Origin: Planctomycetota bacterium
GTDB taxonomy: Bacteria; Planctomycetota; UBA1135; JADKAF01
Direction of reading: 5' to 3'
Length of the DNA: 64,000 nt
NCBI GenBank assembly: GCA_016719295.1
Contig: JADKAF010000002.1
Location: 98,519 to 162,518 of the forward strand
Each line of letters starts with the position of its first letter. Position 1 is the stretch's first letter. Shown here piece after piece: positions 30,375-50,500 of the stretch. The notes beneath the pieces were generated by a model. It ran no database searches, was not told where the DNA came from, and saw nothing but the letters and a program-made list of their open reading frames with translations. A program made the translations under genes and the position numbers.

Positions 30375-30450
<76 letters not shown>

Positions 30451-30566
30451 GAAGTCTGGTCGTCGTCGGGTGTGGTCGTCTTGTCGTTGGCGATCCGATG
30501 CGGATCGCCCAGAGGCCCTCAGCTGGGAGCTCGATCGCGGTCGAGCTCCATGCACGAGTGCCGCTT

Positions 30567-30623
30567 CTCCTGGGAGCTTCATGGTCTCCTGGGAGCTTCA
30601 CGGCCTCCTGGGAGCTTCACAGC
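30567..30623. repeat. 19-nt x3 tandem repeat between tRNA-Gly and tRNA-Thr
   Basis: ctcctgggagcttcatggt / ctcctgggagcttcacggc / ctcctgggagcttcacagc. The units start at 30567, 30586 and 30605. Confidence 0.9.
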
Positions 30624-30702
30624 CCCGACGCCCGCGCACAGGAGAGCACGCGGAAGCAGGGCAGCACCAGCCCCAGTCGAGAAGCAGGCACCGCAGTCGC
30701 GA

Positions 30703-30774
<72 letters not shown>

Positions 30775-31051
30775 GGAGCTACGCCCGCAGGAGCAACGTC
30801 CACCGCTGCTCCACCCTCCGGCATCGAGCCCGAAGGATCGAAACCCGCGGGCCAGAACCTGCGGAGGAGCCGAGACCTGCGGAGGTGCCGATCGCAGCCC
30901 GTCGCGAGCGAGCTCGCAGACGAGCGGGCGCTCGGCGCCCGCGACGATCCCACCCCGCCCCACCTCGTCGGCGCTACGGGCCCCCGGCGCGAGCGCCGGC
31001 GATCAAGCCAGGCCCACGGGAGCCGCGCATCGATCGACGAGACGAGCCGTA

Positions 31052-31134
31052 TGGGGAGAGCAGGATTCGAACCTGCGAAGGCGTAAGCCACCAGATTTAC
31101 AGTCTGGCCCATTTGGCCACTCTGGAATCTCCCC
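31052..31134 (-). tRNA. tRNA-Tyr (anticodon GUA), long variable arm
   Basis: Acceptor GGGGAGA/TCTCCCC, anticodon stem CCAGA/TCTGG with loop CTGTAAA, a 14-nt variable arm, T loop GGTTCGAATCC. Confidence 0.9.
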
Positions 31135-31517
31135 GAGAGTTCCCGGCGAATCGCGGAGCCCGGCGAACCTTGAGTTCGGGCCTCGTGGATTCACGGGCTC
31201 GAGGAAGCACTGGCTCGTGGATCAGGTGTGCGATCGGGACTCGCGGAGGGTTGCTCGCGCAACCTCCTCGAACAAAACGTCCCCGACGTCAAAGATCAGC
31301 CGAGCGTCTCCGCTCGGTCCATCGAGCACCTCCCCGGCCCAAAGGCCCGGGAGACTCGCTTCACCGCCGCCTGCGAGACCCGCTCGCTGCTGCCCCGGGC
31401 ACCGCGGCGTCGAAGCGACGCAGCAGCGCGAGGAACGCCAGCTCACATGGCACGCGGAGCCGTTCGCCCTTCACTCGTTGACGGAAGGGCATCGACCCTC
31501 TGCGCGCCAGCGCCAAA

Positions 31518-31592
31518 TGGAGCTAGCGGAGGGAATCGAACCCACAACCACCCGCTTACAAGGCGGGGGCTCTACCGTTGAGCTACGCTAGC
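31518..31592 (-). tRNA. tRNA-Thr (anticodon UGU), CCA encoded
   Basis: Acceptor GCTAGCG/CGCTAGC, anticodon stem CCCGC/GCGGG with loop CTTGTAA, T loop GGGTTCGATTCCC with one U-U mismatch in the T stem. Confidence 0.85.
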
Positions 31593-33784: not shown

Positions 33785-35544
33785 TCGGCGTGCGAGGCGC
33801 GGATCCACAATTCGACCGCGACGGTATCGCGGCGCCGCGAGAATGCGAAACCCGGCTCCTGCCATGCCAAGCGAAAGCCGGCGGGCAGGAGCTCCGCGCG
33901 CAACGCATCGCGCCAGGCTGCAGCGAAGTGCGCGTCCTCCAGGCGGAAGGCGTGCTGCGAGCCCGCGCCCGGATCGAGGAGCAGCAGCGCGCTCGCGGAC
34001 CCGAGCCACTGGCGTGCGAGCGCGGAGATCTCGCTCGCCGGAACGGAGGGCGCGGTACCCAGGCGCTGCAGGTCGAAGCGCTCGTAGTCGGCGCGCGTCA
34101 GCGGCCTCGCGTCGCTTTCCTCCGCGGCTCGCGCGCAATGGAGCGCCCACGCCAGCGCCGCATCGGAGAGCTCATGTCCCGTGCGCGCGACGCGCAGTCC
34201 GCGGTCGCGCTCCGCGGGCAGCCGCGCGGCGAGGCGCTCGGCCAACGCCGGCAAGCCCTCCGGTCCCGAGGCCTCGATGCCGCGCGAGGCGTAGAGCTCG
34301 CGCCATCCGGCGAGCACGGTCTCCGAAGCCGGACGGAGCCCGAGCCGCTCGGGCGAGAGCAGCCCTGCGCTGGCGGAGAGCAACGCGAGGAATGCCGCCG
34401 AGAGAACGCCGAAGGCCTTGAGCGGAGTGCGCCAGCGCTGCGTCGCGGCGTGGAAGCCCACGCCGGCCAAGATCCACAGGCAGACCAGCCCGGGCAGCAG
34501 CAAGCGCGAGAGCTTGAACGGATGCGCGATCGCCGAGCCGAGCAGCAGCGCGGCGAGCAGCGCCACGAAGCGCAGACCCGAGCGCGCGCGATGCGCGGCA
34601 GCGCCCATCGAGAGGCCGCAGACGCCGGCGAGAACCGCCGGCGAGAGGTGGTGATGCCAGCCGGCGTAGAGCGCGAGCCCCTCGAGGTCGACACCTGGCG
34701 CGCGCGCTTCGCCGAGGTAGCTCACCCACGCGAAGCGATGCGCCCGAGCGACGGCTGAGAGCTCCCCCGGCCAGGGCCAGACGAACCACCACAGCGCGCC
34801 GAGCACGAGGGGCGCCAAGAGCCAGGCGCTCGCGCCGAGCGAGCGCCGCGGCGCCGCGCGCGCGACCCACATCGCCGCGCCGCGCTCGAGCAGCAGCGCC
34901 GCGCCGAGGAGCGCTCCATAGCTCCACTTGGTGAAGCACGCCCAAGCGAAGAAGAGCCCCGGCAGAAGATAGACGAGGGTGCGCCGCGGCCGGCCCGGCG
35001 GCAGCCCCTCGAGCTCGCGGCGCTCGAGCTTCACATACAGCAGCATGCCCACCGCGGCGATCACGGCGAAGGGCACCTCGAGGAAGAGGCTGCGCCCCAG
35101 AGCGACCGCGGCGGGAGAGGCGAGCACCAGGCCCTGCGCGATCCACCCGGCGCGCGTCGTCTCGCGCGAGCCGGCGAGGTGATCGGCGATCGCGCCCACC
35201 AGCAGCGAGAGCAGACCGAAGAGCAGCACCACGCCGGCGCGTGCGCCCGCCGGGTCCGTTCCCGCCACGGCGAGCACCGGCAGGATGGCCAGCGAGGCGC
35301 CGGGGGGATACTGCTCTTGCCCCAGCAGCGCGTGCGCCGCCGCGGCGAGCTCGCCCCGGCGCAGATGCTCCCAGAGGATCACCGCGGGCAGACCCAGGTG
35401 CTCCGCCTCGTCCCAGCCCGGCGGCGGCAGGTCCGGGAGCGCGCGCCAGCTCAGCAGCAGCGCGGCGAGAGCGATCGCGATCCGCGGGAGCTGGCGGCGG
35501 AAAGCGGCGGCGAGGCTGATGCGAAGCGTGGGCATCGACGGCAT
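33781..35544 (-). CDS. Polytopic membrane protein, GT-C fold glycosyltransferase-like (family 39/83, PMT/ArnT-like)
   Basis: 587 aa from ATG 35544 (MPSMPTLRISL) with many hydrophobic segments. The first loop motif PPPGWDEAEHLG resembles the DE motif of PMT/ArnT enzymes. Its stop overlaps the mutS2 start (ATGA). The longer ORF (to 36567) is an antisense shadow of the PLP-enzyme gene. Confidence 0.55.
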   Translation of the reverse strand: MPSMPTLRISLAAAFRRQLPRIAIALAALLLSWRALPDLPPPGWDEAEHLGLPAVILWEHLRRGELAAAAHALLGQEQYPPGASLAILPVLAVAGTDPAGARAGVVLLFGLLSLLVGAIADHLAGSRETTRAGWIAQGLVLASPAAVALGRSLFLEVPFAVIAAVGMLLYVKLERRELEGLPPGRPRRTLVYLLPGLFFAWACFTKWSYGALLGAALLLERGAAMWVARAAPRRSLGASAWLLAPLVLGALWWFVWPWPGELSAVARAHRFAWVSYLGEARAPGVDLEGLALYAGWHHHLSPAVLAGVCGLSMGAAAHRARSGLRFVALLAALLLGSAIAHPFKLSRLLLPGLVCLWILAGVGFHAATQRWRTPLKAFGVLSAAFLALLSASAGLLSPERLGLRPASETVLAGWRELYASRGIEASGPEGLPALAERLAARLPAERDRGLRVARTGHELSDAALAWALHCARAAEESDARPLTRADYERFDLQRLGTAPSVPASEISALARQWLGSASALLLLDPGAGSQHAFRLEDAHFAAAWRDALRAELLPAGFRLAWQEPGFAFSRRRDTVAVELWIRASHAE

Positions 35545-35715
35545 CGCACGGCTGGCCGCGCGAGGACGCGCATGATCGAGGCCCGAGCGAGCGACGGCAA
35601 GGCGAGAGCGGCCGTGTTCCTCGGGCGGCCTCTTCCCGCGCCGCGCCGAACGCCAGCATGGCGCGCTCGCGCGGGCACGAAGCACGCCGCGCCTCCCGAA
35701 GGGAAACCCTCGTCC

Positions 35716-36852
35716 ATGCACTTCGACACGCTCGCCATCCACGCCGGCCAGAAGCCGGACCCCTCCACCGGCGCGATCATGACGCCGGTCTACCTCACGT
35801 CGACCTACGTGCAGCCGGCGCCCGCGGAGCCCATCGCGGGCTACGAGTACTCGCGCACGCGGAATCCCACGCGCGACGCGCTGCAGGAGAACCTCGCCGC
35901 GCTCGAGGGCGGCACGAACGGCCTCTGCTTCTCCTCGGGTCTCGGCGCGATCCACGCGATCACCAGCCTCTTCTCGTCCGGCGATCACGTCATCGCGGGG
36001 AACGACCTCTACGGCGGCACCTACCGCCTGTTCCGCAAGGTCTTCGAGCGCTTCGGCATGCGCTTCGACTTCGTCGACATGACGGATCCGCGCAACGTCG
36101 AGAAGGCGCTGCGCAAGGAGACCAAGATGGTCTTCCTCGAGACGCCGACGAATCCGCTGCTGCGCCTCACCGACATCGCCGCGGTGGCTGCGATCGCGAA
36201 GCGCCACGGCGCGCTGGCCGTGGCAGACAATACGTTTGCGACTCCGTACCTGCAGCGCCCACTGGAGATGGGCTGCGACCTCGTCGTGCACTCGATGACG
36301 AAGTACTTGGGCGGCCACTCCGACGTGGTCGGCGGCGCGATCGTCACGAAGACGACGGAGCTCGCGGAGCGCCTGGCGTTCCTGCAGAACGCGATCGGCG
36401 CCGTGCCGGGCCCGCTCGACTGCTTCCTCGTGCTGCGAGGCACGAAGACGCTGCATCTGCGCATGGATCGCCACTGCGCGAACGCGCAGAAGATCGCCGC
36501 TTGGCTCGAGCAGCAGCCGAAGGTCGAGCGGGTCTACTTCCCCGGCTCGAAGTCGCATCCGCAGCACGCGCTGGCGCAGCGCCAGATGCGCGCTCCGGGC
36601 GGCATGATCAGCTTCGAGCTGAAGGGCAGCGTCGAAGACGGCAAGCGCTTCGCTTCGCGCACCAAGCTCTTCGCGCTAGCCGAGAGCCTCGGCGGCGTGG
36701 AGTCCCTGATCGATCACCCGGCGACGATGACCCACGCCTCGATCCCGGCGTCCGAGCGCCGCGCCGCGGGGCTCAACGACGGCTTGCTCCGCCTGTCCGT
36801 CGGCGTCGAGGACGCGGACGACCTGATCCGCGACCTGGAGCAGGCGTTCTAG
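35716..36852 (+). CDS. Cys/Met-metabolism PLP-dependent enzyme (cystathionine gamma-synthase / beta- or gamma-lyase family)
   Basis: 378 aa from ATG 35716 (MHFDTLAIHAGQ). The PLP-lysine motif VHSMTKYLGGHSDVVGG and the ending ...LLRLSVGVEDADDLIRDLEQA are present. Confidence 0.88.
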   Translation: MHFDTLAIHAGQKPDPSTGAIMTPVYLTSTYVQPAPAEPIAGYEYSRTRNPTRDALQENLAALEGGTNGLCFSSGLGAIHAITSLFSSGDHVIAGNDLYGGTYRLFRKVFERFGMRFDFVDMTDPRNVEKALRKETKMVFLETPTNPLLRLTDIAAVAAIAKRHGALAVADNTFATPYLQRPLEMGCDLVVHSMTKYLGGHSDVVGGAIVTKTTELAERLAFLQNAIGAVPGPLDCFLVLRGTKTLHLRMDRHCANAQKIAAWLEQQPKVERVYFPGSKSHPQHALAQRQMRAPGGMISFELKGSVEDGKRFASRTKLFALAESLGGVESLIDHPATMTHASIPASERRAAGLNDGLLRLSVGVEDADDLIRDLEQAF

Positions 36853-37483: not shown

Positions 37484-37921
37484 TCAGGACTCGAGCAAGA
37501 AGGTCGCCGGTCCGTCGTTGACGATTTCAACCGTCATGTGGGCGCCGAAGCTCCCGGTCGCGATCTCGCGGACCTGCTCTCGAGCGCGCTGGACGAAGCG
37601 CTCGTAGAGCTCCCTCGCGCGGGCCGGAGGCGCCGCTGCGTCGAACGATGGCCTGCGCCCTTTGCGCCCGTCGGCGGCGAGCGTGAACTGCGACACCACG
37701 AGGAGCGCTCCCTCGACCTCCCCCAGCGCGAGGTTCATCTTGCCCGCCGCGTCGGCGAAGACGCGGTAGCCGAGCACGCGCTCGAGCAGGCGATCACCGG
37801 CGGCCTCGTCATCGCCTTCGAGGACCCCGAGGAAGACGAGGAGCCCGGTCCCGATGCGCCCGACCTCGGCGCCTTCGACCCGCACGCAAGCCGAGCTCAC
37901 GCGCTGGAGCACGGCCTTCAT
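37484..37921 (-). CDS. dtd: D-aminoacyl-tRNA deacylase
   Basis: The last 145 aa of ORF 37484..38947 read MKAVLQRV...LLVVSQFTLAADGRKGRRPSF...IVNDGPATFLLE. Its ATG overlaps the upstream stop (ATGA). Confidence 0.9.
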   Translation of the reverse strand: MKAVLQRVSSACVRVEGAEVGRIGTGLLVFLGVLEGDDEAAGDRLLERVLGYRVFADAAGKMNLALGEVEGALLVVSQFTLAADGRKGRRPSFDAAAPPARARELYERFVQRAREQVREIATGSFGAHMTVEIVNDGPATFLLES

Positions 37922-38967
37922 CGCGCACCTCGATCGCGCTCGATATCGGCGAGATAGGTGAGCGCCGCCCGATGGTTCGGCGAGGACGCCCCGTTGGCCT
38001 CGAGCGCGGCGAGAAACGCGCGGTAGTGGCGCTCGGAGCGCGCGCGATCCCGCAGCGGCCCATCGAAGTAGAGCCCGCCGAGCGAGAAATGCACCTCGAG
38101 ATCGGCGGGGAAGCGCTCGAGCATCGCGAGGTAGATGCGCTCGGCCTCGCGCTCCTGGCTCCCGCGCACGAAGGCCGCTCCGCGCGCGTGCCACGCGTCG
38201 GCGCGCGCGGGATCCTCGCTCTGCACGCGGCGGAACTCCATCTCGGCCTCGCGCCATTCGCCGAGCGCGAGCAGCGCGAGGCCCAGGTTCACCCGCACGT
38301 CGCGGTCGGCGGGATCGCGCTGCAGCAGCTCGCGATAGACCGGCAGCGCTCCGGCGGGATCCAGGCGCCGCTCGTGAGCTTCGGCGAGCGCGCGCAGGAG
38401 CTCGCGATCCTCGGGGAACGAGCGCTGTGCGGCCTCGAGGTCGCGTATCGCTCGTCCGAGACGGCCCTCGCTCGAGCCGAGCTCCAGCAAGCCGCGCAGC
38501 GCGCGCGCGTGCGGGAAGTCCGGATCGAGCTCCAGAGCAGCGTCGAGATGCGTGCGGGCCTCGACCGGATCGGCCGCCGTGCGCGCCTCGAGGTAGCGCT
38601 CCACCTGCGGGGCGCACGGCTGACAGGCGAGATCCTCGAGGCGTTGGTTCGGGAGATCGCCGCAGCGGCGCACGTCGAGCAGCGCGCGCAGCACGCCCAG
38701 ATGGCAGGGATGCCTGCGGAGGACATCGAGCAGAACGTCCTCCAAGGCCAGGGCCTGCGGCGCGGGCAAGGGCTGCTCGCGGTCGAAGCGCACGCGGACC
38801 TGGTTCAGCAAGCGCTCGTCCTCGGCGTTGCTCTCGAAATCCTCGTAGCGACGGCGGAGCTCGACGGGATCCACCGCGGTGCTGCCGCACCCGACGAAGA
38901 AGGCGCAGCACCAGCTCCCGCCCGCGGCGAGCGCGCGCGAGCGCCACGCGGGCCGCGCGGAGCTCAA
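37918..38967 (-). CDS. TPR-repeat putative lipoprotein
   Basis: The frame of ORF 37918..39945 shows a signal/lipobox ...RSRALAAGGSWCCAFFVGC, then TPR-like helices (ARTHLDAALELDPDF..., AEAHERRLDPAGALPVYRELLQRDP...). No ATG is available. A TTG at 38967 overlaps the stop of the upstream gene (TTGA). Confidence 0.6.
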   Translation of the reverse strand: MSSARPAWRSRALAAGGSWCCAFFVGCGSTAVDPVELRRRYEDFESNAEDERLLNQVRVRFDREQPLPAPQALALEDVLLDVLRRHPCHLGVLRALLDVRRCGDLPNQRLEDLACQPCAPQVERYLEARTAADPVEARTHLDAALELDPDFPHARALRGLLELGSSEGRLGRAIRDLEAAQRSFPEDRELLRALAEAHERRLDPAGALPVYRELLQRDPADRDVRVNLGLALLALGEWREAEMEFRRVQSEDPARADAWHARGAAFVRGSQEREAERIYLAMLERFPADLEVHFSLGGLYFDGPLRDRARSERHYRAFLAALEANGASSPNHRAALTYLADIERDRGAR

Positions 38968-39491
38968 GAGCCCCCTGAGCTCGGCGGCAGAACGAGCCTC
39001 ATGGCCCCTCCGCGCTGGCGCTGGGACGGAGCGTCGATCCACCAGACGGCGCCGCCGCTCCCGCGCACCGAGATCTCCGTCGCCGACTCGGCGAAGACGA
39101 TGCGCAGCTTGCGCAGAGCGGCGAACTCCACTTTCCCGATCAAACAGCGCGCGGCCATCATGTTCGGCGTCTGGGCCTCGAGGACCGTCTGGAGCACGAG
39201 CTCGCTGCGCCCCGCTGTGGTGTCGCGCATCTGGCGCGAGTCGACGCGCTTGAACAGCTCTCCGCGCGTGTCGAAGGTGCAGAGCTCGCGCAGGTCCGCG
39301 GGCATCTCGACCTCGACCGCGTCGGCGAAGCAGCCGACGCTGTGCTCCTGCACCCAGGTGCGCGTCCGCTCGATGCGCGCCTCGACCACCGGATCGCGCG
39401 AAATCGGCGGCGGCGGCGGCGCTTCCTCCGGCGCCGTGCAGGAAACCGCGGCGAGAGCGAGAGCGAAGCTGAGCAGAGCGAAGGTGCGCAT
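38964..39491 (-). CDS. Putative lipoprotein, unknown function
   Basis: 175-aa ORF with signal peptide and lipobox MRTFALLSFALALAAVSC, then a Pro-rich linker and a globular-looking sequence of balanced composition. Confidence 0.6.
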   Translation of the reverse strand: MRTFALLSFALALAAVSCTAPEEAPPPPPISRDPVVEARIERTRTWVQEHSVGCFADAVEVEMPADLRELCTFDTRGELFKRVDSRQMRDTTAGRSELVLQTVLEAQTPNMMAARCLIGKVEFAALRKLRIVFAESATEISVRGSGGAVWWIDAPSQRQRGGAMRLVLPPSSGGS

Positions 39492-39544
39492 GGCGAGGCA
39501 TCGGCGGCCGCGCGAGAGCGCTCGAGGCGGTGCGCGGAAAAGCC

Positions 39545-39573
39545 GTGACCCCTGAAGCTAGCGGTCGTATGTT
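39545..39573 (+). promoter_or_regulatory. Candidate promoter of the MCE operon (would give a leaderless or near-leaderless mRNA)
   Basis: GTGACC-N17-TATGTT. The -10 ends 9 nt before the ATG at 39583 and there is no SD in between. Confidence 0.3.
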
Positions 39574-39582
39574 CCGCCCGCC

Positions 39583-41139
39583 ATGGACATGCCGCGCGGG
39601 ACCGAAGAGCGCCCCCACCTTCGATGCATCGCGCGCCCCTCGCTCGTGGAGCGGACGACTCGCATCGGTGCGCTCATCGCCGGCGCGTGGCTGGCCGGCT
39701 CTTGCGCGCTCCCCCCCGCCGACATCAACCTGGCCCCGCTCTTCGCTCACGAGACCTACTCCGTGAGCGAGGGCGAGCACGTCTACGAGGTCCTGGGCGG
39801 CATCGCCAGCTCCGGCCGGCGCGACGGACGGGAGCACGTGGCCCTGCGCCCGCTGTTCCACCACCGCGAGACCTTCGCCGACGAAGCGCAGGCGATCCGC
39901 GCCACCACCTCGCTCGACTTCCTCTTCCCCCTCGGCCACTCCCACACGGGGGAGGGCGAGGCGCGCACCTACCTCTTCCCGTTCTTCTTCCGCACCGCGC
40001 GCTTCGACGTGGAGGATCGGCGCGACATCGATTGGATGGTGCTGCCGTTCCTCTTCGGCGGCAGCGCGGACGATGGCGCGGAGAGCTACTTCGCGTTCTT
40101 TCCCTTCTACGGGGAGATCCGGAACTTCCTCTCCTACGAGCGCGTGCGCTTCGCGCTCTTCCCTCTATGGGCGCAGAGCTGGAAGGACGAGCGCGAGGCC
40201 TGGTTCGTGCTGTGGCCCTTCTTCGGCGCGGCGACGGGCGAGGACTACGACATGCTGCGGATCCTGCCCTTCTACGCGCACTCGCGCGTCGCGGGCCGCG
40301 AGGAGTCGCTCGCGATCCTCTGGCCCTTCTATACGCAGGAGAAGCGCTGGCTCGACTCCGATCAGCCGCTCGAGACGAGCATGCTCCTGCCCTTCTACGG
40401 GCGGCAGGTGATGGGCAGCTTCGAGTCGACGACGGTGCTGCCGCCCTTCGTCGGGTGGGCGCACGATGACGACGATTTCAGCAGCTTCCAGATCTGGCCG
40501 ATCTTCCTCACGCTGAGCGGCGGCGATGGCGAGAACCGGCCCTTCGAGCGCTTCTACTTCCGGCCCTTCTACGCGCGCTACCGCTCGAAGGAGATCGACC
40601 AGCACGTCTACCTCTGGCCGCTGATCTGGGACCGCAGCGAGCGCTTTCCCGAGGACGGCGAGCCGATCACGACGGCGCGGCGCTTCATGGTCTTGCCGTT
40701 CTGGCAATCTTGGACGACGACGCACGGGGAGAAGCGCGGCAGCTACTTCCAGCTCTGGCCGCTGGTGCACTCCGATCATCCCGCGGACGGCGGCTCCGAG
40801 GTGCAGATCTTCTCGCCTTGGCCCTACCATCCCCACCAGGACTACATCCAACGCAACCTGGAGCCGTTCCTCACGCTTTACCGCAGCGAGAGCCGGACCG
40901 AAGATCTGAGCACCACACGCGGTCCGCTGGGCATCTTCCGCATGATCGAGACGAACGACGACTGGCGCTTCTCGCTACCGCTGCTGGGCGGTCTGCGCAC
41001 GACGACGCGCGGCCGCGTCGAATTCTCGCTGCTCGCCGGGCTGCTGCGTTTTCGCACCGACGACGGGCTCTCCTTCCTGCCTCCGGCCTTTCCCGGTCCG
41101 GGGTTCGCTCCGCTCGATCCCGAGGAGGAGCTGCGTTGA
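39583..41139 (+). CDS. Repeat-rich putative lipoprotein (about 17 aromatic-Pro repeats), unknown family
   Basis: 518-aa ORF. The N-terminus ...RIGALIAGAWLAGSC is signal/lipobox-like. The motif h-h-P-[FL]-[FYW] (LWPFFG, ILPFYA, LLPFYG, FRPFYA, VLPFWQ ...) recurs every 17-30 aa. Its stop overlaps the next gene. Confidence 0.7.
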   Translation: MDMPRGTEERPHLRCIARPSLVERTTRIGALIAGAWLAGSCALPPADINLAPLFAHETYSVSEGEHVYEVLGGIASSGRRDGREHVALRPLFHHRETFADEAQAIRATTSLDFLFPLGHSHTGEGEARTYLFPFFFRTARFDVEDRRDIDWMVLPFLFGGSADDGAESYFAFFPFYGEIRNFLSYERVRFALFPLWAQSWKDEREAWFVLWPFFGAATGEDYDMLRILPFYAHSRVAGREESLAILWPFYTQEKRWLDSDQPLETSMLLPFYGRQVMGSFESTTVLPPFVGWAHDDDDFSSFQIWPIFLTLSGGDGENRPFERFYFRPFYARYRSKEIDQHVYLWPLIWDRSERFPEDGEPITTARRFMVLPFWQSWTTTHGEKRGSYFQLWPLVHSDHPADGGSEVQIFSPWPYHPHQDYIQRNLEPFLTLYRSESRTEDLSTTRGPLGIFRMIETNDDWRFSLPLLGGLRTTTRGRVEFSLLAGLLRFRTDDGLSFLPPAFPGPGFAPLDPEEELR

Positions 41140-41918
41140 ACCTCCTCCGGACGGGGCGCGAGATGCTCGAGGGCACGAGCTACACCCTCGGCATCGCCGG
41201 CCGCACCGCGCTCGCGTTGCCGCAGCTCTGGCGTCGGCGCCGCGAGACCACCGAGCAGTGCTATGCCGCCAGCGTGAAGCTGATCCACGTGATCGTCCTG
41301 GTCGGCGCGTTCGCGGGCATGATCCTCTCGCTGCAGACCGGTCTCGCCCTGGCGGATTTCGGCCAAGAGGGTTCGATCGGCTCGATCGTCGCCGCGGCGA
41401 TGGTGCGCGAGATGGGCCCCTTCATCACTGCGGTGATCCTCGCGGCCGCCGTGGGCTCGGCGCTCGCCGCGGAGCTCGGCACGATGAAGGTCTCCGACGA
41501 GATCACGGCGCTGGAGGTGATGTCGATCGACCCGGTGCCCTTCCTCGTGCTGCCGCGCGTGGTGGCGCTCACCGTCGCTTGCCCCCTGCTCGCGATCGTC
41601 GCGAACGTGGTCGGCATCTACGGCGGCTCGATCGTCGCCGAGAGCCTGCTGCGCGTCGATCCGCTCGCGTATCGCGAGACGGTGCTCGACGTGCTCTCGC
41701 GCCCCGCCGAGATCTTCCCGGTCCCGAAGGACATCTATGCCGGGCTCTTCAAGGCCACGGTGTACGGCTTCCTCATCGCCGTGATCGGATGCTCGCACGG
41801 CCTGCGCGCCTCGAATGGCGCGCTCGGCGTCGGCGAAGCCGCGCGCACCGCGGTGCGCAACTCGATCATCCTCGTGCTGGTCATGAACTTCATCCTGACC
41901 CGGGTGATGTACACATGA
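41136..41918 (+). CDS. mlaE: MlaE/YrbE-family ABC transporter permease
   Basis: About 260 aa with EMGPFITAVILAAAVGSALAAELGTMKVSDEITALEVMSIDP. The start is TTG 41136 (TTGA overlap) or ATG 41163. Confidence 0.85.
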   Translation: MNLLRTGREMLEGTSYTLGIAGRTALALPQLWRRRRETTEQCYAASVKLIHVIVLVGAFAGMILSLQTGLALADFGQEGSIGSIVAAAMVREMGPFITAVILAAAVGSALAAELGTMKVSDEITALEVMSIDPVPFLVLPRVVALTVACPLLAIVANVVGIYGGSIVAESLLRVDPLAYRETVLDVLSRPAEIFPVPKDIYAGLFKATVYGFLIAVIGCSHGLRASNGALGVGEAARTAVRNSIILVLVMNFILTRVMYT

Positions 41919-42733
41919 GCAGCGCTGCGAGCGACGCGGACATCGCCGTGCGCTTCGAGGCCGTGGAGAAGCACCTCGGGGGCAAGCAGATCCTCCGCGG
42001 CCTCTCCTTCGAGGTGCCGCGCGGCACGAGCTTCGTGATCATGGGGCCCTCTGGCTCCGGGAAGAGCGTCACGCTGAAGCACATCGTGGGCATCCTCGCG
42101 CCGGACGCGGGGCGCGTGCTCGTCTTCGGCCGCGAGCCCGGCAAGCTCTCGCGCAGCGAGCTCGCCTCGCTGCGCAGCCGCATCGGCCTGCTCTTCCAGG
42201 ACGGCGCGCTCATCAATTGGATGAACCTCGAGGACAACGTGGCGCTCCCGCTGCGCGAAGTGCAGCGCCTGCCTGAACGCGAGGTGCGCCCGCGCGTGGA
42301 GGAAGCGCTCGAGCGCGTGCATCTCGCCGACGCCGCGCGGAAGATGCCCTCCGAGATCTCGGGCGGCATGCGCAAGCGCGCGGCGCTGGCGCGCGCGATC
42401 ATCTCGCGCCCCGAGCTGCTCCTCTACGACGAACCCGACGCGGGCCTCGACCCCGCGACCGGTGGCTCGATCAACCGCTTGATCCGCCGCGTGCAGCGCG
42501 AGCTCGGCGCCACGGGTGTCATCGTGACGCACAGCCGCTCCTGCGCGCTGACCGTCGGCGATCGGATCGGCATCTTCGAGCAAGGGCACATGGCCTCGGA
42601 AGGAACGGCCGAGGAGATGGCAGCGAGCCGCGATCCGCGCGTGCGGATCTACCTCGGGATCGATGGTGAGGTGACCGCGGAGCGCAGCGACTCGCGCGGT
42701 GCGGAGCACGGCACAGGAGCGACGGGACGATGA
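41915..42733 (+). CDS. mlaF: MlaF-like ABC transporter ATP-binding protein
   Basis: Walker A GPSGSGKS, signature SGGMRKR, Walker B LLLYDEPDAGLD. ATGA overlap with mlaE. Confidence 0.88.
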   Translation: MSSAASDADIAVRFEAVEKHLGGKQILRGLSFEVPRGTSFVIMGPSGSGKSVTLKHIVGILAPDAGRVLVFGREPGKLSRSELASLRSRIGLLFQDGALINWMNLEDNVALPLREVQRLPEREVRPRVEEALERVHLADAARKMPSEISGGMRKRAALARAIISRPELLLYDEPDAGLDPATGGSINRLIRRVQRELGATGVIVTHSRSCALTVGDRIGIFEQGHMASEGTAEEMAASRDPRVRIYLGIDGEVTAERSDSRGAEHGTGATGR

Positions 42734-43920
42734 GATCGATGGCCTTCGGCGCGCTCTTCCTCCTCGGGCTGGGCGTGCTCGTCTATTACACGATCTTCCT
42801 CTCGGCGTTCTCGTTCGGTGGACGAGTGACGCTCGACGTGCGCTTCCCCGACGGAAAGTGGCTCACCTCCGGCGACAAGATCCTCGTCGCGGGCACGCGC
42901 ATCGGCCGCGTCGGCCGCGTGGAGTACCTGGAGGAAGAGGTCGACGAGGGCTTTCCCGTGCGCGCGTACCTCGAGCTCGACCGCGATCTCAAGCTCTTCG
43001 AGGACGCGCGCGTGCGCATCGTGAGCTCGACGCTGCTCGGCGGTCGCATGATCACGATCGCCCCGGGCCAAAAGGGCCAAGCGCGTCGCGTGAGCGAGAT
43101 CGAGTTCCTGCGCGGCGACGTGCAAGGCGACCTCGCCGAGGCCGTCGAGAGCGTCGTCTCCGAGAATCGCGAGGCGCTGAAGCGCACCATCGACAGCGTC
43201 GCCCAGGCCAGCGCGGATCTCGCGAAGCTCCTGCGCGCGCTCGAGGAGGGCCAGGGCTCGGCGGGCCGTCTGCTGCGCGACGAAGCGCTCCATCGCGAGG
43301 TCCTCGGCATGATCGAGGACGCGCGCGGGCTCCTGCAGTCGATCCGCTCGCGAGAGAGCAGCTTCGGCCGCCTGCTCGCCGACGACACGCTCTACGAGGA
43401 GATCGAGGGCATCGCGAAGGCGCTGCGCGAGATCGCCGAAGGGGCGTCGCGAGGCGAAGGCCTGGCCGGGCTCTTGCTCCGCGACAGCGAGATGCGCGCG
43501 CGCATCGATCGCATCGTCGCGCGCCTGGACGACGCCACGGCCGCCATCGAGACGCAGCAAGGCCTGGTCGGCGCGCTGATCTACGACGGCGGCGTGAAGA
43601 GCGCGCTGCAGGAGCTGTCGAGGAACGTGGAGACGATCAGTGCGGAGATCGCGAGCGGGCGCAGCCTTGCCGGCGAGATCCTCGTCGGCCGCCGCCTCGT
43701 GAGCTCGATCGTCGAGCCGCTAGAGGTGATCATGGCCGACGCACGCGCGCTCGTGCAGAACACGCGCGAAGGCCGCGGGATCGCCGGCATGCTGCTCAGC
43801 GACAACGAGTCCGCCGCCCTCGTTCGCAGCATTCTCCGAAACTTCGCACGTAGCCTTGAAGATGCCCGTGAAGCCGCACCGATCGGCACGTTGGTCGGTG
43901 TCCTCATCGGGATCTGCTGA
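42730..43920 (+). CDS. MCE-domain (MlaD-like) protein with a long helical repeat extension
   Basis: N-terminal TM (FGALFLLGLGVLVYYTIFL), an MCE beta-barrel-like segment (VRFPDGKWLTSGDKILVAGTRIGRVGRVEY), about 6 repeats of G-x-x-G-x-LL-x-D, and a hydrophobic C-terminus. ATGA overlap with mlaF. Confidence 0.8.
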   Translation: MRSMAFGALFLLGLGVLVYYTIFLSAFSFGGRVTLDVRFPDGKWLTSGDKILVAGTRIGRVGRVEYLEEEVDEGFPVRAYLELDRDLKLFEDARVRIVSSTLLGGRMITIAPGQKGQARRVSEIEFLRGDVQGDLAEAVESVVSENREALKRTIDSVAQASADLAKLLRALEEGQGSAGRLLRDEALHREVLGMIEDARGLLQSIRSRESSFGRLLADDTLYEEIEGIAKALREIAEGASRGEGLAGLLLRDSEMRARIDRIVARLDDATAAIETQQGLVGALIYDGGVKSALQELSRNVETISAEIASGRSLAGEILVGRRLVSSIVEPLEVIMADARALVQNTREGRGIAGMLLSDNESAALVRSILRNFARSLEDAREAAPIGTLVGVLIGIC

Positions 43921-45074
43921 TGTCGCTGCTCCGCTGCTCTCTCGCGGCTCCTCTCTTCCTCTCTCTCGCCCTCGCCGGCGCCCTCGCGCAGGAGCGGCCC
44001 GACGCGGCCCTCCCGAAGGCACCTTCGCTGCGGATCGCGTTCGCCGGCCCCGCGGGCACGTGGACCAGCGAGCTGCCGAGGCTCGCGGCGCGCTTGGAGC
44101 TCTTGCTCGGAGCCCAGGGCTTCGCGGTGCGCTCGCGCGAGCTGCTCGCGCCCGGCGTCCTCACGCTCCACGGCGAGTGCCGTTCCCCGCAGAAGCTGAC
44201 GCGCCGCGCCCTGCAGTCCCTGCTCCAGCAGCCGCAGCTCGCGCCTTGGCCGAAGCTGCGCGTGCTGCTGAGCGACGCCGATCCGGAGCCGCAGGGCTGG
44301 TGCCTCGAAGGCGAGCTGGCCTTCACGCTGGTGAAGCCCGAGGCCGTGACCCGCGAGACCATCGATCTCGCACGCGAGCTCGCGCGGCGCCATCTGCTGC
44401 AGCGAGGCACCCCCGAGGCCGCTCTCGACGAGATGCTGCGCCACCTCGAGCTGCGCCGGCTCTACGAGCGTCCGAGCGCGGCCGATCCGAAGCGCCTCGA
44501 CGTGCGCTTCGCGCTGCGCGCGGCGATGAAGACGCCCGATACCCTCGAGGTCTCCCGCTGGCTCGCGCTCTTCGCGCCTCGCACCAGCGTCGACCTCCGT
44601 CCGGCCATCGCGGCGGACGAGCCGCTGAAGGACGCGCTGCGCGCGACACCCGCTGCCGCGAGCGCGGCCGAGCTCGCCGCCGTGGTCCGCGAAGCGAGCG
44701 CCGGGGCCTGCGAAGCGCGCGTCGTCCGTGGCGCAGCGGCGCCTTTCCGCCGCGTCGAAGACCTGCGCTTCCTCGCCGCGACCTCGCCTTTGGGACCGGA
44801 GCCCTGCGCGACCCTCGTCGCTCAGCGCGATGCGCTCGGCGGCACGGCGTTGCGCTGGACGCTGAGCGCCGCGGCGAGCGAGCGCGCCGCCGCGCTCGCT
44901 CCGGAGGAGCGCTTCCAGCTCCTGGTGAACGGCGAGGCCTGGGGCGAGGTGCGCCCGCGCGACCTCGCTGCGGGAGAGGGCATCCTCTTCGGCGAGTTCG
45001 CGAGCAGCGACGTCGAGCTGGCCTCCCGCGCGTTCGCTCCGCTCGATCCGCCGGCGCTCTGGATCGCGCGCTGA
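43920..45074 (+). CDS. Secreted protein of unknown function (last gene of the MCE operon)
   Basis: 384-aa ORF with signal peptide MSLLRCSLAAPLFLSLALAGALA-QE. Its start overlaps the MCE gene stop (TGATG). Confidence 0.6.
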   Translation: MSLLRCSLAAPLFLSLALAGALAQERPDAALPKAPSLRIAFAGPAGTWTSELPRLAARLELLLGAQGFAVRSRELLAPGVLTLHGECRSPQKLTRRALQSLLQQPQLAPWPKLRVLLSDADPEPQGWCLEGELAFTLVKPEAVTRETIDLARELARRHLLQRGTPEAALDEMLRHLELRRLYERPSAADPKRLDVRFALRAAMKTPDTLEVSRWLALFAPRTSVDLRPAIAADEPLKDALRATPAAASAAELAAVVREASAGACEARVVRGAAAPFRRVEDLRFLAATSPLGPEPCATLVAQRDALGGTALRWTLSAAASERAAALAPEERFQLLVNGEAWGEVRPRDLAAGEGILFGEFASSDVELASRAFAPLDPPALWIAR

Positions 45075-45111
45075 AGCGCGCGTACGTCGGCACCCGCCGA
45101 CGCCGGCCCGC

Positions 45112-45771
45112 TCAGCGCGGCTCCTCGTCCAGGTAGCCGCCGCGCCGCAGCAGCTCGTCGAGCCCGGGGCGCGGTCCGCCTCCGCCGCCCGGAAGCAGCT
45201 TCTCGATCCACTTGGCGACGAGGTCGGCCTCGACGTGCACGGCCTCGCCCACGGCGAGCTCGCCCAAGTTCGTCTCGCGCAGCGTGTGCGGCACGACCCA
45301 GACGTCGAAGCGCGCGCCGCGCGGCGCGACGACGGTGAGGCTCACCCCGTCGAGCGCGATCGAGCCCTTGTCGATCAGGTAGCGCCCGAGCTCCGCAGGC
45401 AGCTCGAAGCTCAGCGTCTCGCCCGCTCCGGAGCCCTGGCGCCCCACCAGGCGACCGAGGCCGTCGACGTGCCCCGAGACGAGGTGACCACCCAGGCGAT
45501 CGGAGAGCCGCAGGGCTCGCTCCAGGTTCAGGCGCCGCCCGGGCTCTACCGCACCGAGTCGCGTGCGAGCCAAGGTCTCAGCCGAGAGATCGAAGCGCGC
45601 GAGCTCCCCCACCCGAGCCGAAACGGTGAGGCAAGCGCCGTTCACCGCGATGCTCTCCCCCAGGGCGAGATCAGCGGACCAGGGAGCGAGATCGATCCAG
45701 AGCACCTGCTCGCGACCGCTCTTCTCGCGCCGGAGAAGGGGGCGCACGAGGCTGATGATGCCGGTGAACAT
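45112..45771 (-). CDS. ribE: Riboflavin synthase (alpha chain)
   Basis: MFTGII start with two lumazine-binding repeats (ESIAVNGACLTV / GSIALDGVSLTV). Confidence 0.9.
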   Translation of the reverse strand: MFTGIISLVRPLLRREKSGREQVLWIDLAPWSADLALGESIAVNGACLTVSARVGELARFDLSAETLARTRLGAVEPGRRLNLERALRLSDRLGGHLVSGHVDGLGRLVGRQGSGAGETLSFELPAELGRYLIDKGSIALDGVSLTVVAPRGARFDVWVVPHTLRETNLGELAVGEAVHVEADLVAKWIEKLLPGGGGGPRPGLDELLRRGGYLDEEPR

Positions 45772-45849
45772 GAGGGGCGGAGCTGCGAGGGAGGCCGAAG
45801 GAGAACCGCGCGGAACGGCGCTCGAGAGCCGCGGGGGGTGGGAGCGCGC

Positions 45850-45878
45850 TTGACGACCGACAGGCCCTTCCCTAACCT
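45850..45878 (+). promoter_or_regulatory. Candidate promoter of trmD-rplS
   Basis: TTGACG-N17-TAACCT, about 30 nt upstream of the trmD GTG. Confidence 0.4.
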
Positions 45879-45908
45879 GCTGGGCCTTTCTCCGCGGCGG
45901 GTCGGTCC

Positions 45909-46952
45909 GTGCGGATCTTCATCCTGACCCTCTTTCCGGCTGCCGTCGAGGCTTATCTCGCTGCTGGCATCCTCGGGATCGCCCGCCGTAAGCGCTTGAT
46001 CGACGCGACCTTGGTGAACTTCCGCCAGTACGGGCGGGGGCGTCACCGGGCCGTCGACGATCGCCCATTCGGCGGAGGTGCCGGGATGGTCCTGAAGCCC
46101 GAGCCCGTGTTCGACTGCATCGAGCAGATCGAGCGCGAGCACGGTGTTTGCCGAAGGATCCTGCTCTGCCCGGGCGGAACGACGTTCCGCCAGGCGACGG
46201 CGGGCCAACTCGCGAGCGAAGAGCGCCTGCTCTTCCTCTGCGGGCGCTACGAAGGCTTCGACGAGCGCATTCGGCAAGGGCTCGAGTGGACGGAGATCTC
46301 GCTCGGGGACTTCGTCCTCTGCGGTGGCGAGCTCGCGGCCTTGGCCGTGATCGAAGCCACGGTGCGGCTGCTCCCGGGCGTGCTCGGGGACGCGGCTTCG
46401 CCGGCGGAAGAGAGCTTCTCCGCGTGGGAGCCGCTCTCCGTCGAGGCCTCCGGTGCTGCCGGAAGGCGCATGACGCAGGATCCCCGCACGAAAGCCGACA
46501 CCAACCCCACCGCACGCAACCGAGAACTCCGCACACCAACTCCGCCCCCGCCCCCAACTCAGCTTCACCCCCCAACTCAGCGTCAACCCTACGACCCGCC
46601 GCTCGCGAGAGCCGCCGAGCCACTTCCGCTAGAGGACCCCGAGACGGGCCTCGAGTATCCGCAGTACACACGCCCCCGGGTGTACCGCGACATGGAAGTG
46701 CCCCCCGTGCTGCTCTCGGGAGACCACCAGGCGATCCGGGCATGGCGGCGGAGAGAAGCCCGAGAACGAACCGAGCGATCCCGACCCGACTTGTTGCTCG
46801 GCCGCCCGAAGGCGTCCGCGGGGCAGGGCGAATCCGACGAACCATCCCCGCCGCGAGGCGGCGGACTACCATCGCCGCCGCGAGGCGGCGGACCCTCATC
46901 GCTGCCGCAGGGCGGCGCCGAATCATTGCCGCCACAGGGCGGCGCGACCTGA
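45909..46952 (+). CDS. trmD: tRNA (guanine37-N1)-methyltransferase TrmD with a linker insertion and a repeat tail
   Basis: GTG start. RAVDDRPFGGGAGMVLKPEP, CGRYEGFDERI, SLGDFVLCGGELAALAVIEA and LEYPQYTRP are present. About 75 extra residues sit between EESF and LEYPQYTRP. The C-terminal tail has PPRGGG-type repeats. Confidence 0.88.
   Translation: MRIFILTLFPAAVEAYLAAGILGIARRKRLIDATLVNFRQYGRGRHRAVDDRPFGGGAGMVLKPEPVFDCIEQIEREHGVCRRILLCPGGTTFRQATAGQLASEERLLFLCGRYEGFDERIRQGLEWTEISLGDFVLCGGELAALAVIEATVRLLPGVLGDAASPAEESFSAWEPLSVEASGAAGRRMTQDPRTKADTNPTARNRELRTPTPPPPPTQLHPPTQRQPYDPPLARAAEPLPLEDPETGLEYPQYTRPRVYRDMEVPPVLLSGDHQAIRAWRRREARERTERSRPDLLLGRPKASAGQGESDEPSPPRGGGLPSPPRGGGPSSLPQGGAESLPPQGGAT
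46848..46945 (+). repeat. About 27-nt tandem repeats encoding the TrmD C-terminal tail
   Basis: The unit ccgccgcgaggcggcgga... recurs at 46848 and 46875, followed by degenerate copies (ccgcagggcggcg, ccgccacagggcggcg). Confidence 0.75.
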
Positions 46953-47565: not shown

Positions 47566-50500
47566 ATGGTCCCCAACATCGGCCGCAAGGTCACTCTCGT
47601 CCTGACCCTCCTCGGGCTGAGCTTGCTCGCGCTGCTCATCCCGCCGCTGGCAGGCGAGTTCCCGATCAAGCTCGGTCTCGACCTGCAAGGCGGCACGCGC
47701 CTCGTGTACCAGGTCGACACGGAGCGCCTGAACGCTCAGCAGGGCACCGACGACTCGATGCAGCGCGATCTCGCGACGCTCATCGACGAGACGATCGGCA
47801 TCATCCGCAACCGCATCGACCCGACCGGCGTGCTCAGCATCACGCTGCAGCGACAGGGCGCGGACCGCATCCTGATCGAGCTGCCGGGCATGTCGCCTGC
47901 CGAGGCGGGCGCCGTGGAGCGCTTGATCACGGAGCTCGGCAAGCTGGAGTTCCGCATCGTCGCCTACAAGGGCGCGGGCTCCGGCGGTGAGCGCAAGGGC
48001 GAGGACGTCGACGTCGACGCCGCGAAGAAGAAGCTGAACGACTGGTGGAGCGCCGAGCTCGCGCGCGGCGGCGACGTCTACGTCGACGAGTACGCGCTGC
48101 GCCGCTACAACGCGCTGCCCGAGAGCGCCGGCGGCCCGCCGACCGGCTTCTTCTGGGCCGGCCTGCAGAACCCGCCCGAGCCGCGCGAGATGGACGGCCG
48201 GGCCCTCTTCCTCGAAGCCTTCTACAAGGCCGCGAAGAAGGAGTGGGCGGAGCGCCTCTCCGACGGCTCGGTCGTGATCCACAACCGTGTGTACGGCGGC
48301 GAGCGTCAGGCGCCTGGGCCGATCTCGGTCGGCGATCAGAGCCCGGTGCCGCTGAAGCTGCGCCGCTCGCCTGGCACCACGCCGATGGTGCACGGCGAAT
48401 GGCTCGACGTGGCGCTGCTGCGCGACGAGCGCGTGCTGACCACGGGCAAGAACTGGGTCTTCACCGGCGAGGATCTCTATCAGACCTTCCCGGACCAGGA
48501 CCAGAACGGCTATCCCTGCGTGCGCTTCATCTGCCAGGCGTCCCGCAGCGATGCCTTCGCGGATTTCACCGAGGCGTACACCAATCGCCCGATGGCGATC
48601 CTGCTGAACGACTATATCTCCGGCAACCCGCCGGTGATCCAGGGCCGTCTGCCCGGCGCCGGCATCATCACCGGCAACTTCAGCTCGGCCGAGGTGAAGC
48701 ACCTGCAGAACGTGCTCCGCTCGGGCAGCTTGAAGATCCCGCTCGAGCTGATGTCGCGCGATCTCATGGGCCCGACCCTCGGTGAGGAAGCGATCCGCCT
48801 GGGCTCGATCTCGGCGCTGATCGGCCTCGCGCTCGTCATCTGGTTCATGACCTACTACTACAGGCGGGTCGGCATCGTGGCGGCGTGGTCGCTCGGCGCG
48901 AACATGCTGCTCCTGCTCGGCGCGATGGCCCTCTTCCGGGTGAACCTGAACCTCCCCGGCATCGCGGGCCTGATCCTGACCGTCGGCATGGCGCTTGACG
49001 CCAACATCCTGATCTACGAGCGCATCCGCGAAGAGCGCGCGAAGCAGCGCACGCTGCTGCAGTCGGCCAAGAACGGCTTCGATCGCGCGTTCCTCACGAT
49101 CTTCGACTCGAACCTTACCACGCTGATCACCTCGGTGGTCCTGATGTGGCTCGGCACCGGCCCCGTGCGCGGCTTCGCGGTCGTGCTCGCGATCGGCATC
49201 CTAACCACGATGTTCGCGGCCCTGGTGGTCACCAAGGTCCTGATCCACTTCCTGCTGCAGAAGCCGAACTTCCGCGAGTTCGAGATGCGCTCGTGGGTGC
49301 CGAAGACCCACTACAACTTCACGAAGTACATGGGCCAGTGCGTCGCGGGCTCGCTGATCGCGATCCTGCTCGGCCTGGTCGTCGTCACGGTGAAGGGCCG
49401 GGAGCTCCTCGGCATCGACTTCACCGGTGGTGGCACCTTCCGCGTCGCGCTGAAGGAGGACATGGAGATCAGCACCGTCCGCGAGAAGATGGAGCAGATC
49501 TTCGAGTCGGTGCAGGTCTCGACCCTCGGTGACAGCAAGCGCGTCTACAGCATCAAGGTGAAGCTCGACCCCGAGGACAACCGCGGGCTCCAGCAGGACA
49601 TCGCCTCGCGGCCGGGCATCTCGCGCCGCGCCGAAGGCGCCGTCGATCGCTCCGCGGCGAAGGGAGCCGGGCTCCGCGACGACCGTCGCTTCGAGCCGAT
49701 CGATCTCGTGCTCCGCTTCGCCCACCCCGTGGTCGAGTCCGACCTCGAGGACATTCGCGAGCGCCTCTTCCGCCAGGGCTTCGTCTCCTTCCCCACCCAG
49801 CCGTGGATGGAAGTCGAGGCCGATGACGCGCGTGCCGTTCGCCGCGCGAACGAAGAAGCCGGTCGCTTCGTGAAGGCGAACTTCCACTCGGCCGACTCCG
49901 GCGACCAGGAGAAGGGCACTCCCAAGCTCGTGGGCGCCGAGGGTACGAGCGGCATCGTCGCGAAGCCGCAGGTGCAGCTCGAACCCACCGATCCCACGGA
50001 GCGCACGGTGGTGCTGCGCAACACGCGCCTCCTCTTCGAGCGCCTGCGCGAGCACGGCGACATGAATCTCGTGCGCCGCGCGCTCCTGCCGCGCTATGAG
50101 CTCGGCATCCAGGGCCTCGAGGCCCAGATCCGCGCGCTGCTGGGCGACCAGCTCGCGCCGGACTTCCTGATCAGCGATCGCGGGATCTCCGATCTCGCGC
50201 TCGAGCAGGTGCGGGTCTCGTTCGAGCTCGGCTTCCCGAAGGCCGTCGACGTCGAGCTGGTGCGCCAGCTCCTGCGCCAGGCGGGCCTCGTTCCCGAGCA
50301 CCTGAAGAGCGAGGGCAAGGAAGTCGAGCCGGGGAGCAGCGCGAGCCGCTTCACCGTCGAGAACGCCTACTCTCGCTACATCGCCGAGGCAGGCACGCTC
50401 TCCACGGAGCTCGCGGCCGAGGCCGCGCGCATCGAGCGCAATCCCGCCGTCGGCGGCGTCTTCGGGCAGGTTTCGGCTACGAACGCGAGCTTCCGCGGCA

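Follow-up and report, generated by a model that had tools for sequence, protein, structure and literature searches.

Published phylogenomics regards an operon limited to the three-gene MlaEFD core, with a long MlaD, as the common and probably ancestral form of the Mla system (PMC10665443). In Veillonella parvula, the mlaE-mlaF-mlaD operon lacks MlaA, MlaB and MlaC, and the MlaD proteins of this type have approximately 370-420 amino acids (aa) and consist of a membrane anchor, a single MCE domain and an extended helical region that is proposed to bridge the two membranes (Grasekamp et al. 2023, PMC10665443). The MlaDs of the PVC bacteria (Planctomycetes, Verrucomicrobia, Chlamydia) have no C-terminal barrel, and approximately 90% of long MlaDs lack a predicted one; how these proteins engage the outer membrane is unexplained, and a helper role for "as yet unidentified proteins" has been raised (PMC10665443). 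The present analysis concerns a five-gene operon (positions 39583-45074, forward strand) in a 64,000-nucleotide stretch of DNA from a Planctomycetota bacterium (contig JADKAF010000002.1, positions 98,519 to 162,518), the whole of which is referred to here as the window. The genes encode, in order, a repeat lipoprotein (gene 1), an MlaE-like permease, an MlaF-like ATPase, a long MCE protein (mce) and a secreted protein (gene 5). The results argue that the first four genes form a conserved unit that probably encodes an envelope-spanning lipid transporter, with gene 1 as a candidate for its outer end.

The locus resembles the V. parvula type in its core operon, in the absence of MlaA, MlaB and MlaC, and in the length and domain order of its MCE protein. 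It differs in two respects. The V. parvula MlaD has a fused outer-membrane beta-barrel end, whereas the window MCE protein has a 12-residue hydrophobic tail, and the window system has a separate, approximately 500-aa exported repeat protein as a conserved member of the operon. The available part of the published account (PMC10665443) makes no mention of a partner similar to gene 1. The pairing of an MCE needle with a dedicated PqiC-like lipoprotein is already known from PA3211-PA3214 of Pseudomonas aeruginosa, Brucella Mpc and E. coli PqiABC (PMC13631591, PMC12436622, PMC10897342). The window locus shares with these systems an inner-membrane engine, a helical-needle MCE protein and a dedicated lipoprotein encoded in one operon. 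In PA3211-14 and PqiBC, the C-terminal peptides of the MCE needle dock on outer-membrane lipoprotein rings (PMC13631591). PqiC-like proteins are small and form octameric rings (PMC13631591), whereas gene 1 encodes a single hairpin-repeat chain of approximately 500 aa with no Pfam match; the gene for the PqiC-type lipoprotein is last in its operon, whereas gene 1 is first in the window operon.

Other likenesses are found in E. coli and in mycobacteria. The E. coli MlaFEDB-MlaC-MlaA system has homologous MlaE, MlaF and MCE-domain subunits. However, E. coli MlaD has 183 aa, the window MCE protein is long (396 aa) and scores under the MlaD equivalog cut-off, and the window operon has no STAS, MlaC or MlaA gene. 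The nearest solved sequences to the MCE protein are, weakly, the subunits of mycobacterial Mce1 (E 0.005), of the Mce1-4 systems (e.g. PDB 8FED). In Mce1 a tiny barrel at the end of the complex is built from C-terminal strands, one per MCE subunit (as cited in PMC10665443), and it serves here as a model for the tail of the window MCE protein. Six different Mce proteins make up the heterohexamer of an Mce system, which also has other accessory subunits and belongs to a different envelope, whereas only one MCE gene is present in the window operon; a second MCE system was not found within the window. A preliminary description of the locus, made from the sequence, had proposed a variant, undescribed machine. 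As far as found, the conserved repeat-protein partner is indeed new, but an MlaEFD core with a long MlaD in PVC bacteria has already been published (PMC10665443).

Results

The five open reading frames (ORFs) lie on the forward strand with no intergenic DNA: gene 1 (39583..41139, 518 aa), mlaE (41136..41918, 260 aa from a TTG start), mlaF (41915..42733, 272 aa), mce (42730..43920, 396 aa) and gene 5 (43920..45074, 384 aa). Genes 1 and 5 are considered real genes because both have conserved homologues. The coordinates given in the preliminary description, and its four overlapping junctions (TTGA at 41136, ATGA at 41915, ATGA at 42730 and TGATG at 43918), were all confirmed in the sequence. At the first junction the TTG start of mlaE overlaps the TGA stop of gene 1, and a Shine-Dalgarno-like GAGGAGGAG run (41122-41130) lies 5 nucleotides (nt) ahead of the TTG. 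Overlaps of 4 nt among gene 1, mlaE and mlaF, including that of gene 1 and mlaE, are present again in five other Planctomycetota loci (L001, L002, L004, L005 and L007). A scan of positions 38900-45900 returned no promoter-like site and a single terminator-like site, located inside gene 1, where 1.9 were expected by chance. There is no sign of internal signals in the operon, though such a scan is weak at a G+C content of 68-70% (approximately 68% for the window). The proposal of a tightly coupled operon around an MlaE/MlaF/MCE core is supported by these observations. The further proposal that the genes form one stoichiometric unit is not, because overlapping stop and start codons do not imply stoichiometry.

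The MlaE-like permease matches PF02405 (E 1.3e-66, 224.7 bits against a cut-off of 22.5) over profile positions 2-211 of 212, and hydropathy reveals several hydrophobic segments. Its score with TIGR00056 (210.1 bits) is slightly under the cut-off of 212.2. The product of the third gene matches ABC_tran (E 3.8e-30), and its top match in NCBIfam is MlaF (NF008809; E 5.6e-57, 193 bits, with an equivalog cut-off of 441). It is named here as the MlaF-like partner because its gene adjoins mlaE. The MlaE permease and the MlaF-like ATPase constitute the ATP-binding cassette (ABC) engine of the locus. The first assignments of the three middle genes as MlaE-like, MlaF-like and MCE are in line with the Pfam and NCBIfam matches. 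None of the five products matches MlaA/VacJ, MlaC or STAS in Pfam or NCBIfam at E values up to 0.1, which agrees, for the five genes tested, with the reported absence of MlaA, MlaB (STAS) and MlaC.

In the long single-domain MCE protein, a membrane anchor and the MCE domain are followed by a modular helical region and then by a conserved hydrophobic tail. The membrane helix (aa 4-28, in a hydrophobic segment of aa 1-28) is followed by the MCE domain at aa 33-113 (nt 42826-43068), which matches PF02470 with an E value of 7.8e-11 (42.5 bits against a cut-off of 25.1). The helical region of approximately 250 residues contains six GxGxxGxLLxD repeats of approximately 35 aa each (aa 176-384). The number of these repeats differs between homologues (alignment A8), as if the helical length were tuned in modules. 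MCE homologues called in related loci have faint or weak matches to PF28544 (Helical_needle). With the TIGR04430 MlaD equivalog model the window protein scores 42.4 bits, against a cut-off of 135. The tail consists of the 12 residues APIGTLVGVLIGIC* (43882..43917) and is conserved across phyla with the family consensus ..(E/D)..P(L/I)..hG...G..(T)(L)F*, in which the terminal Phe is almost always present. The window protein itself terminates in Cys (43915-43917), and nearly all homologues, including that of L009, terminate in Phe. A C-terminal barrel of the V. parvula type was rejected, since the protein has no more than 12 hydrophobic residues beyond its last helical repeat.

The linkage of gene 1 to MCE operons was examined in two sets of loci. 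The first set, seeded on gene 1, comprised 49 loci: eight obtained by protein lookup and 41 from a scan of one genome per species (A5). Sufficient downstream DNA was available for 45 of the 49, which are referred to as informative. In all eight lookup loci the gene 1 homologue is followed by mlaE, mlaF and mce, at identities down to 25%, and five of the eight also have the 4-nt overlaps. Among the informative loci, mlaE lies directly downstream of the gene 1 homologue in 44 of 45, and all three genes are present in 40. The loci are labelled Planctomycetota, Thermodesulfobacteriota/Deltaproteobacteria, Dadabacteria, Spirochaetia, Ignavibacteriales, Verrucomicrobia and Lentisphaerae. Because these loci had been chosen through gene 1, a second, independent metagenome scan was seeded on the MCE protein (A9), giving 80 loci with two classes of tail. 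A gene 1 homologue adjoins 37 of the 41 informative MCE genes that encode a P..G...G..F* tail, in 21 cases as the first gene of the operon and in 16 cases immediately after mce (mlaE-mlaF-mce-gene 1). No gene 1 homologue adjoins an MCE gene with a DPKKYLNVKVSIF* tail, a class with three informative loci. The association of tail class with adjacent gene 1 has a Fisher p of 0.0026, calculated over loci that are not phylogenetically independent.

Outside the Planctomycetota the flanks of the operon differ, with an alanine racemase gene upstream and a ParB_N-like gene downstream; therefore the linkage is not simply a frozen block of neighbours. The preliminary description had suggested conserved synteny as a test of its proposal. 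For gene 1 the synteny extends well beyond close relatives: it holds in seven phyla or more, and the genes occur in two different orders. It is well supported, and highly probable, that gene 1 is functionally coupled to the MCE type with the P..G...G..F* tail.

Several neighbours recur around these operons. The ParB_N-like gene, which encodes a cytoplasmic protein of approximately 315 aa, follows mce in non-Planctomycetota loci, often with a 1-nt gap or overlap (L003 12061-12990, L024, L027, L028, L031, L037 and L042; alignment A6). The alanine racemase gene lies immediately upstream of the gene 1 homologue in loci of the Dadabacteria/Thermodesulfobacteriota type. A dtd gene (D-aminoacyl-tRNA deacylase; 37484-37930 on the reverse strand of the window) is near the operon in 25 loci. 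It is upstream and divergent in Planctomycetota, and 0.04-2 kb downstream of mce in loci of the Dadabacteria/Thermodesulfobacteriota type (L024-L047).

Gene 1, the conserved fourth component of the module, encodes an exported beta-hairpin-repeat protein that is predicted to be lipidated. A lipoprotein signal peptide with a lipobox (..AWLAGS/C, Cys41; 39646..39705) was identified by a PROSITE-type rule. Cys41 comes after a hydrophobic stretch and a small residue and is kept in about 50 of 56 aligned homologues (A1); among homologues from other phyla, some have a lipobox and the others a conventional signal peptide. Public gene calls place the start at GTG 39646, giving a product of 497 aa (P0001). 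Sixteen Pro-anchored hairpin repeats with a mean spacing of 20.2 aa follow (39820..40812). Their loop motif is hydrophobic-aromatic-Pro-hydrophobic-aromatic, for example LWPFF or ILPFY. Ten of the 16 repeat prolines are invariant in A1, and six are nearly invariant or specific to the window. Across the family, the hydrophobic fraction is 0.87-0.97 at positions -2, -1, +1 and +2 of the Pro, with mostly aromatic residues, and at most 0.25 at positions -9 to -6 and +5 to +10. The lipobox and the repeats are both in line with the name repeat lipoprotein that gene 1 had first been given. The family is large, with 379 homologue clusters in one search and 529 in another, all named "hypothetical". Gene 1 has no match in Pfam or NCBIfam, a Pfam scan of 65 family members (64 homologues as well as gene 1 itself) gave no match, and full-text literature searches found no description of the family.

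The AlphaFold2 model of gene 1, built with 56 sequences, has a predicted local distance difference test score (pLDDT) of 91, a predicted template modelling score (pTM) of 0.80 and approximately 45 short beta strands, most of 5-7 residues. The Pro motif sits in every second loop of the model; thus the greasy loop would be at one end of each hairpin and a polar turn at the other. On this pattern the hydrophobic loops are expected to be aligned at a single edge of the sheet. Foldseek searches of PDB and BFVD found no global relative (query-normalised TM-score at most 0.19). The only locally convincing matches, themselves weak, are proteins with single-layer sheets or sheets of hairpin repeats (OspA, the TCP10 G-box and MORN proteins). 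A search of PDB with the sequence profile gave only a chance match (E 0.033). The fold of gene 1 is therefore confidently predicted, as a model without a solved relative, and neither profile nor Foldseek searches matched gene 1 to a well-characterised family.

Several identities of gene 1 were considered and rejected. A PqiC-like protein was rejected because gene 1 has no Pfam match and is a 518-aa all-beta protein, and no PqiC-like protein is among its best 50 PDB matches. An outer-membrane beta-barrel would be expected to have strands of at least approximately 9 residues with alternating lipid-facing hydrophobic residues; the strands of gene 1 mostly have 5-7 residues, and strand positions are mostly polar. 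VDAC and LptD are marginal Foldseek matches. MORN, Kelch, WD40, YD/RHS and propeller proteins were rejected for want of a Pfam repeat match, and in Foldseek the query-normalised TM-score to propellers, teneurin YD shells and MORN proteins is at most 0.19. Finally, gene 1 has no Pfam match to MlaA or MlaC.

Gene 5 is specific to one lineage. Its N-terminus has a hydrophobic segment followed by ALA/QE, which reads as the signal peptide that had been proposed for this 384-aa protein. Homologues at 65-90% identity reveal a normal substitution pattern, and there are no matches in Pfam or NCBIfam. Four relatives were found in a word-indexed search of 5.8 billion proteins and three in a full HMMER search of 1.84 billion representatives. 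Overall, the homologues from both large searches are four close ones, P0127 and the 146-aa P0126. Besides the window, the only loci with this gene after mce are L009, where it is 78% identical, and L001, where it is 26% identical; L009 is a contig of a metagenome-assembled genome (MAG) whose gene 1 is 91% identical to that of the window. Gene 5 is absent from the syntenic loci L002, L004-L008, L010-L014, L016 and L046. The gene directly after mce is ribE in L002 and L006, and ribE or another gene in the other syntenic relatives. The ParB_N-like gene was rejected as a counterpart of gene 5, as its product has no signal peptide and is unrelated. The five genes were at first taken as one unit. 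Gene 5 does not share the synteny with mlaEFD, since syntenic relatives have the other four genes without it, and the conserved unit is of four genes.

The AlphaFold2 model of gene 5 is poor (pLDDT 64). Its top Foldseek matches are nevertheless the SecDF P1 structures 3AQO, 5YHF and 5XAN (E 4e-6 to 2.5e-5, probability 1.0), with TM-scores of 0.25-0.45. Alignment with hhalign matched aa 291-369 of gene 5 (nt 44790-45026) to aa 299-381 of the window SecD with an E value of 0.0014 and a probability of 18%, in a register that agrees with the P1 head assigned to the window SecDF by Pfam (aa 289-390). The L001 homologue, P0127, matches PF22599 with an E value of 1e-4 (22.6 bits, cut-off 27). These three weak, independent lines agree, and suggest weakly that gene 5 is similar to SecD P1 (PDB 3AQO; PF22599, PF21760), the best structural match of its model. 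A sequence search of PDB with gene 5 found nothing. A BLASTP comparison with the SecDF of the window gave no significant match (E 0.33); therefore a recent duplication of secD is unlikely. Gene 5 reads as a secreted SecD-P1-like protein that was added to the operon in one lineage. Unlike SecDF, it would be a free secreted protein without transmembrane domains, and it is probably outside the transporter core. Of the two proteins that had been described as unplaceable, gene 1 still belongs to no described family, but gene 5 has this weak resemblance.

The SecDF of the window (47566-51612, forward strand) is a fused protein of 1348 aa, compared to 837 aa in the syntenic L002. Approximately 500 extra residues without a Pfam match lie between the first SecD_SecF_C-type domain and the final one (aa 1150-1329), and the P1 domain has an insertion relative to L002.

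Other features of the window were noted. Divergent from gene 1 is a gene for a 175-aa predicted lipoprotein (38964-39491, reverse strand; ..LAAVS/C) with no Pfam match; L005 and L006 have 176-aa proteins, also with no Pfam match, at the same relative position. The trmD ORF (45909-46952, forward strand) has 347 aa, compared to 229-232 aa in relatives. It contains a Pro-rich internal insertion and a C-terminal tail of PPRGGG-type repeats, and its start or true length may differ. Four tRNA genes are clustered at 30378-31592 on the reverse strand. The highest G+C content of the window (0.72-0.74) is found at 32000-36000. A 928-aa ORF on the reverse strand (33781-36567), whose start is putative, resembles a multi-pass membrane protein in its C-terminal two thirds and overlaps a cystathionine synthase-type ORF on the forward strand.

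Discussion

The reading preferred here, with a probability of roughly 0.55, is that the locus encodes a four-component, envelope-spanning lipid transporter of the MCE/Mla type, accompanied by one lineage-specific accessory gene, and that gene 1 is at the outer end of the transporter. By comparison with solved MCE systems, the MCE protein would assemble into a ring of six subunits and a helical tube through which lipid crosses the periplasm. The six tails may come together in a small terminal bundle or barrel of strands, as suggested by Mce1 and by predictions for long MlaDs without a barrel. The repeat protein would act at the distal, outer-membrane end, where it would dock or cap the tip of the MCE protein. 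A lipid anchor, together with a continuous hydrophobic aromatic edge formed by the 16 loops, may hold gene 1 at the outer membrane, such that it links the MCE tip to the inner leaflet. In other systems this role falls to PqiC-like rings, to MlaA together with MlaC, or to a fused beta-barrel. The substrate is probably a glycerophospholipid. A more specific and tentative proposal is that the gene 1 family represents a new, widespread class of outer end, in which a single-chain hairpin array, with an aromatic rim and, in some lineages, a lipid anchor in the inner leaflet of the outer membrane, would take up the six Phe-terminated tails of a long MlaD that lacks a barrel.

Several observations weigh against the placement of gene 1 at the outer end. 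The shape of gene 1 and the position of its hydrophobic edge are deduced from sequence and predicted secondary structure, and the proposed contact with the MCE tail is drawn by analogy with PA3213-PA3214 and PqiB-PqiC. The lipobox is missing from several gene 1 clades that have ordinary signal peptides; since it is not family-wide, lipidation alone cannot carry outer-membrane anchoring. The 7 kb to each side of a gene 1 homologue from Leptospirales (L039, 6893-8281) contain none of mlaE, mlaF and mce. Four informative loci with the P..G...G..F* tail (L077, L086, L088 and L089) have no adjacent gene 1 homologue. The tail association carries no correction for shared ancestry, and its negative class consists of three informative loci. 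Finally, every member of the gene 1 family that was found is a MAG or metagenome sequence.

Alternatively, gene 1 may be a periplasmic lipid carrier or a rail along the bridge, similar to MlaC or LptA, and not an outer-membrane dock. Sixteen aligned hydrophobic aromatic loops could make a continuous stripe, the local matches are to extended single-layer sheets, albeit weakly, and the lipid anchor is not conserved throughout the family. However, shuttles are generally replaced by long MCE bridges (PMC10665443). In addition, the pTM of gene 1 suggests a compact, defined fold, not a free ribbon, and the tie to a particular MCE tail points to contact at the tip. A carrier or rail is therefore considered unlikely.

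It is also possible to see gene 5 as an integral fifth subunit, an outer or periplasmic partner alongside gene 1. It is secreted, its start overlaps the stop of mce in the window, and it is found after mce in two other loci. A SecD-P1-like fold would be a ferredoxin-like periplasmic fold; this fold is related to the porter domains of resistance-nodulation-division (RND) transporters, some of which move lipids. Yet gene 5 is missing from relatives in which the other four genes and the flanks are conserved, only three relatives were found among 1.84 billion representatives, other phyla have the unrelated cytoplasmic ParB_N-like gene in its slot, and the structural model is of low confidence. A five-part machine appears improbable.

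Gene 1 could also be an assembly, stability or regulatory factor, or an envelope tether, that is outside the transport path. Conserved synteny demonstrates functional linkage, not mechanism, and four loci of the same MCE type lack an adjacent gene 1. Mycobacterial Mce systems have accessory proteins that are not involved in transport. On the other hand, linkage that persists in seven or more phyla and in both gene orders, as well as the 4-nt coupling to mlaE in Planctomycetota loci, are more typical of a structural subunit, which makes a purely accessory role for gene 1 quite improbable. That gene 1 is an unrelated envelope protein caught in a conserved housekeeping block is disfavored and very improbable: the Planctomycetota neighborhood is conserved as a whole (cystathionine synthase, HU, dtd, TPR, trpS, ribE, trmD, rplS, secDF) and dtd stays near the operon in other phyla too, but outside the Planctomycetota the flanks change while gene 1 remains with mlaEFD, gene 1 moves from first to last position and is still adjacent, and it is absent beside MCE genes with the other type of tail.

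The movement of glycerophospholipids between the two membranes of diderm bacteria is an open problem. An exported fourth gene product that tracks one type of MlaD over many phyla and in two gene orders is a concrete, testable candidate for a part in it. As the gene 1 family is found only in uncultured bacteria, its function will have to be approached by heterologous expression and structural work, and the operon is compact enough for heterologous expression, for which PA3211-14 provides a precedent. If gene 1 does act at the outer end of the transporter, it would be the "as yet unidentified protein" that allows MlaEFD systems of the majority type to reach the outer membrane, and it would represent a fourth solution beside MlaA with MlaC, PqiC rings and fused barrels.

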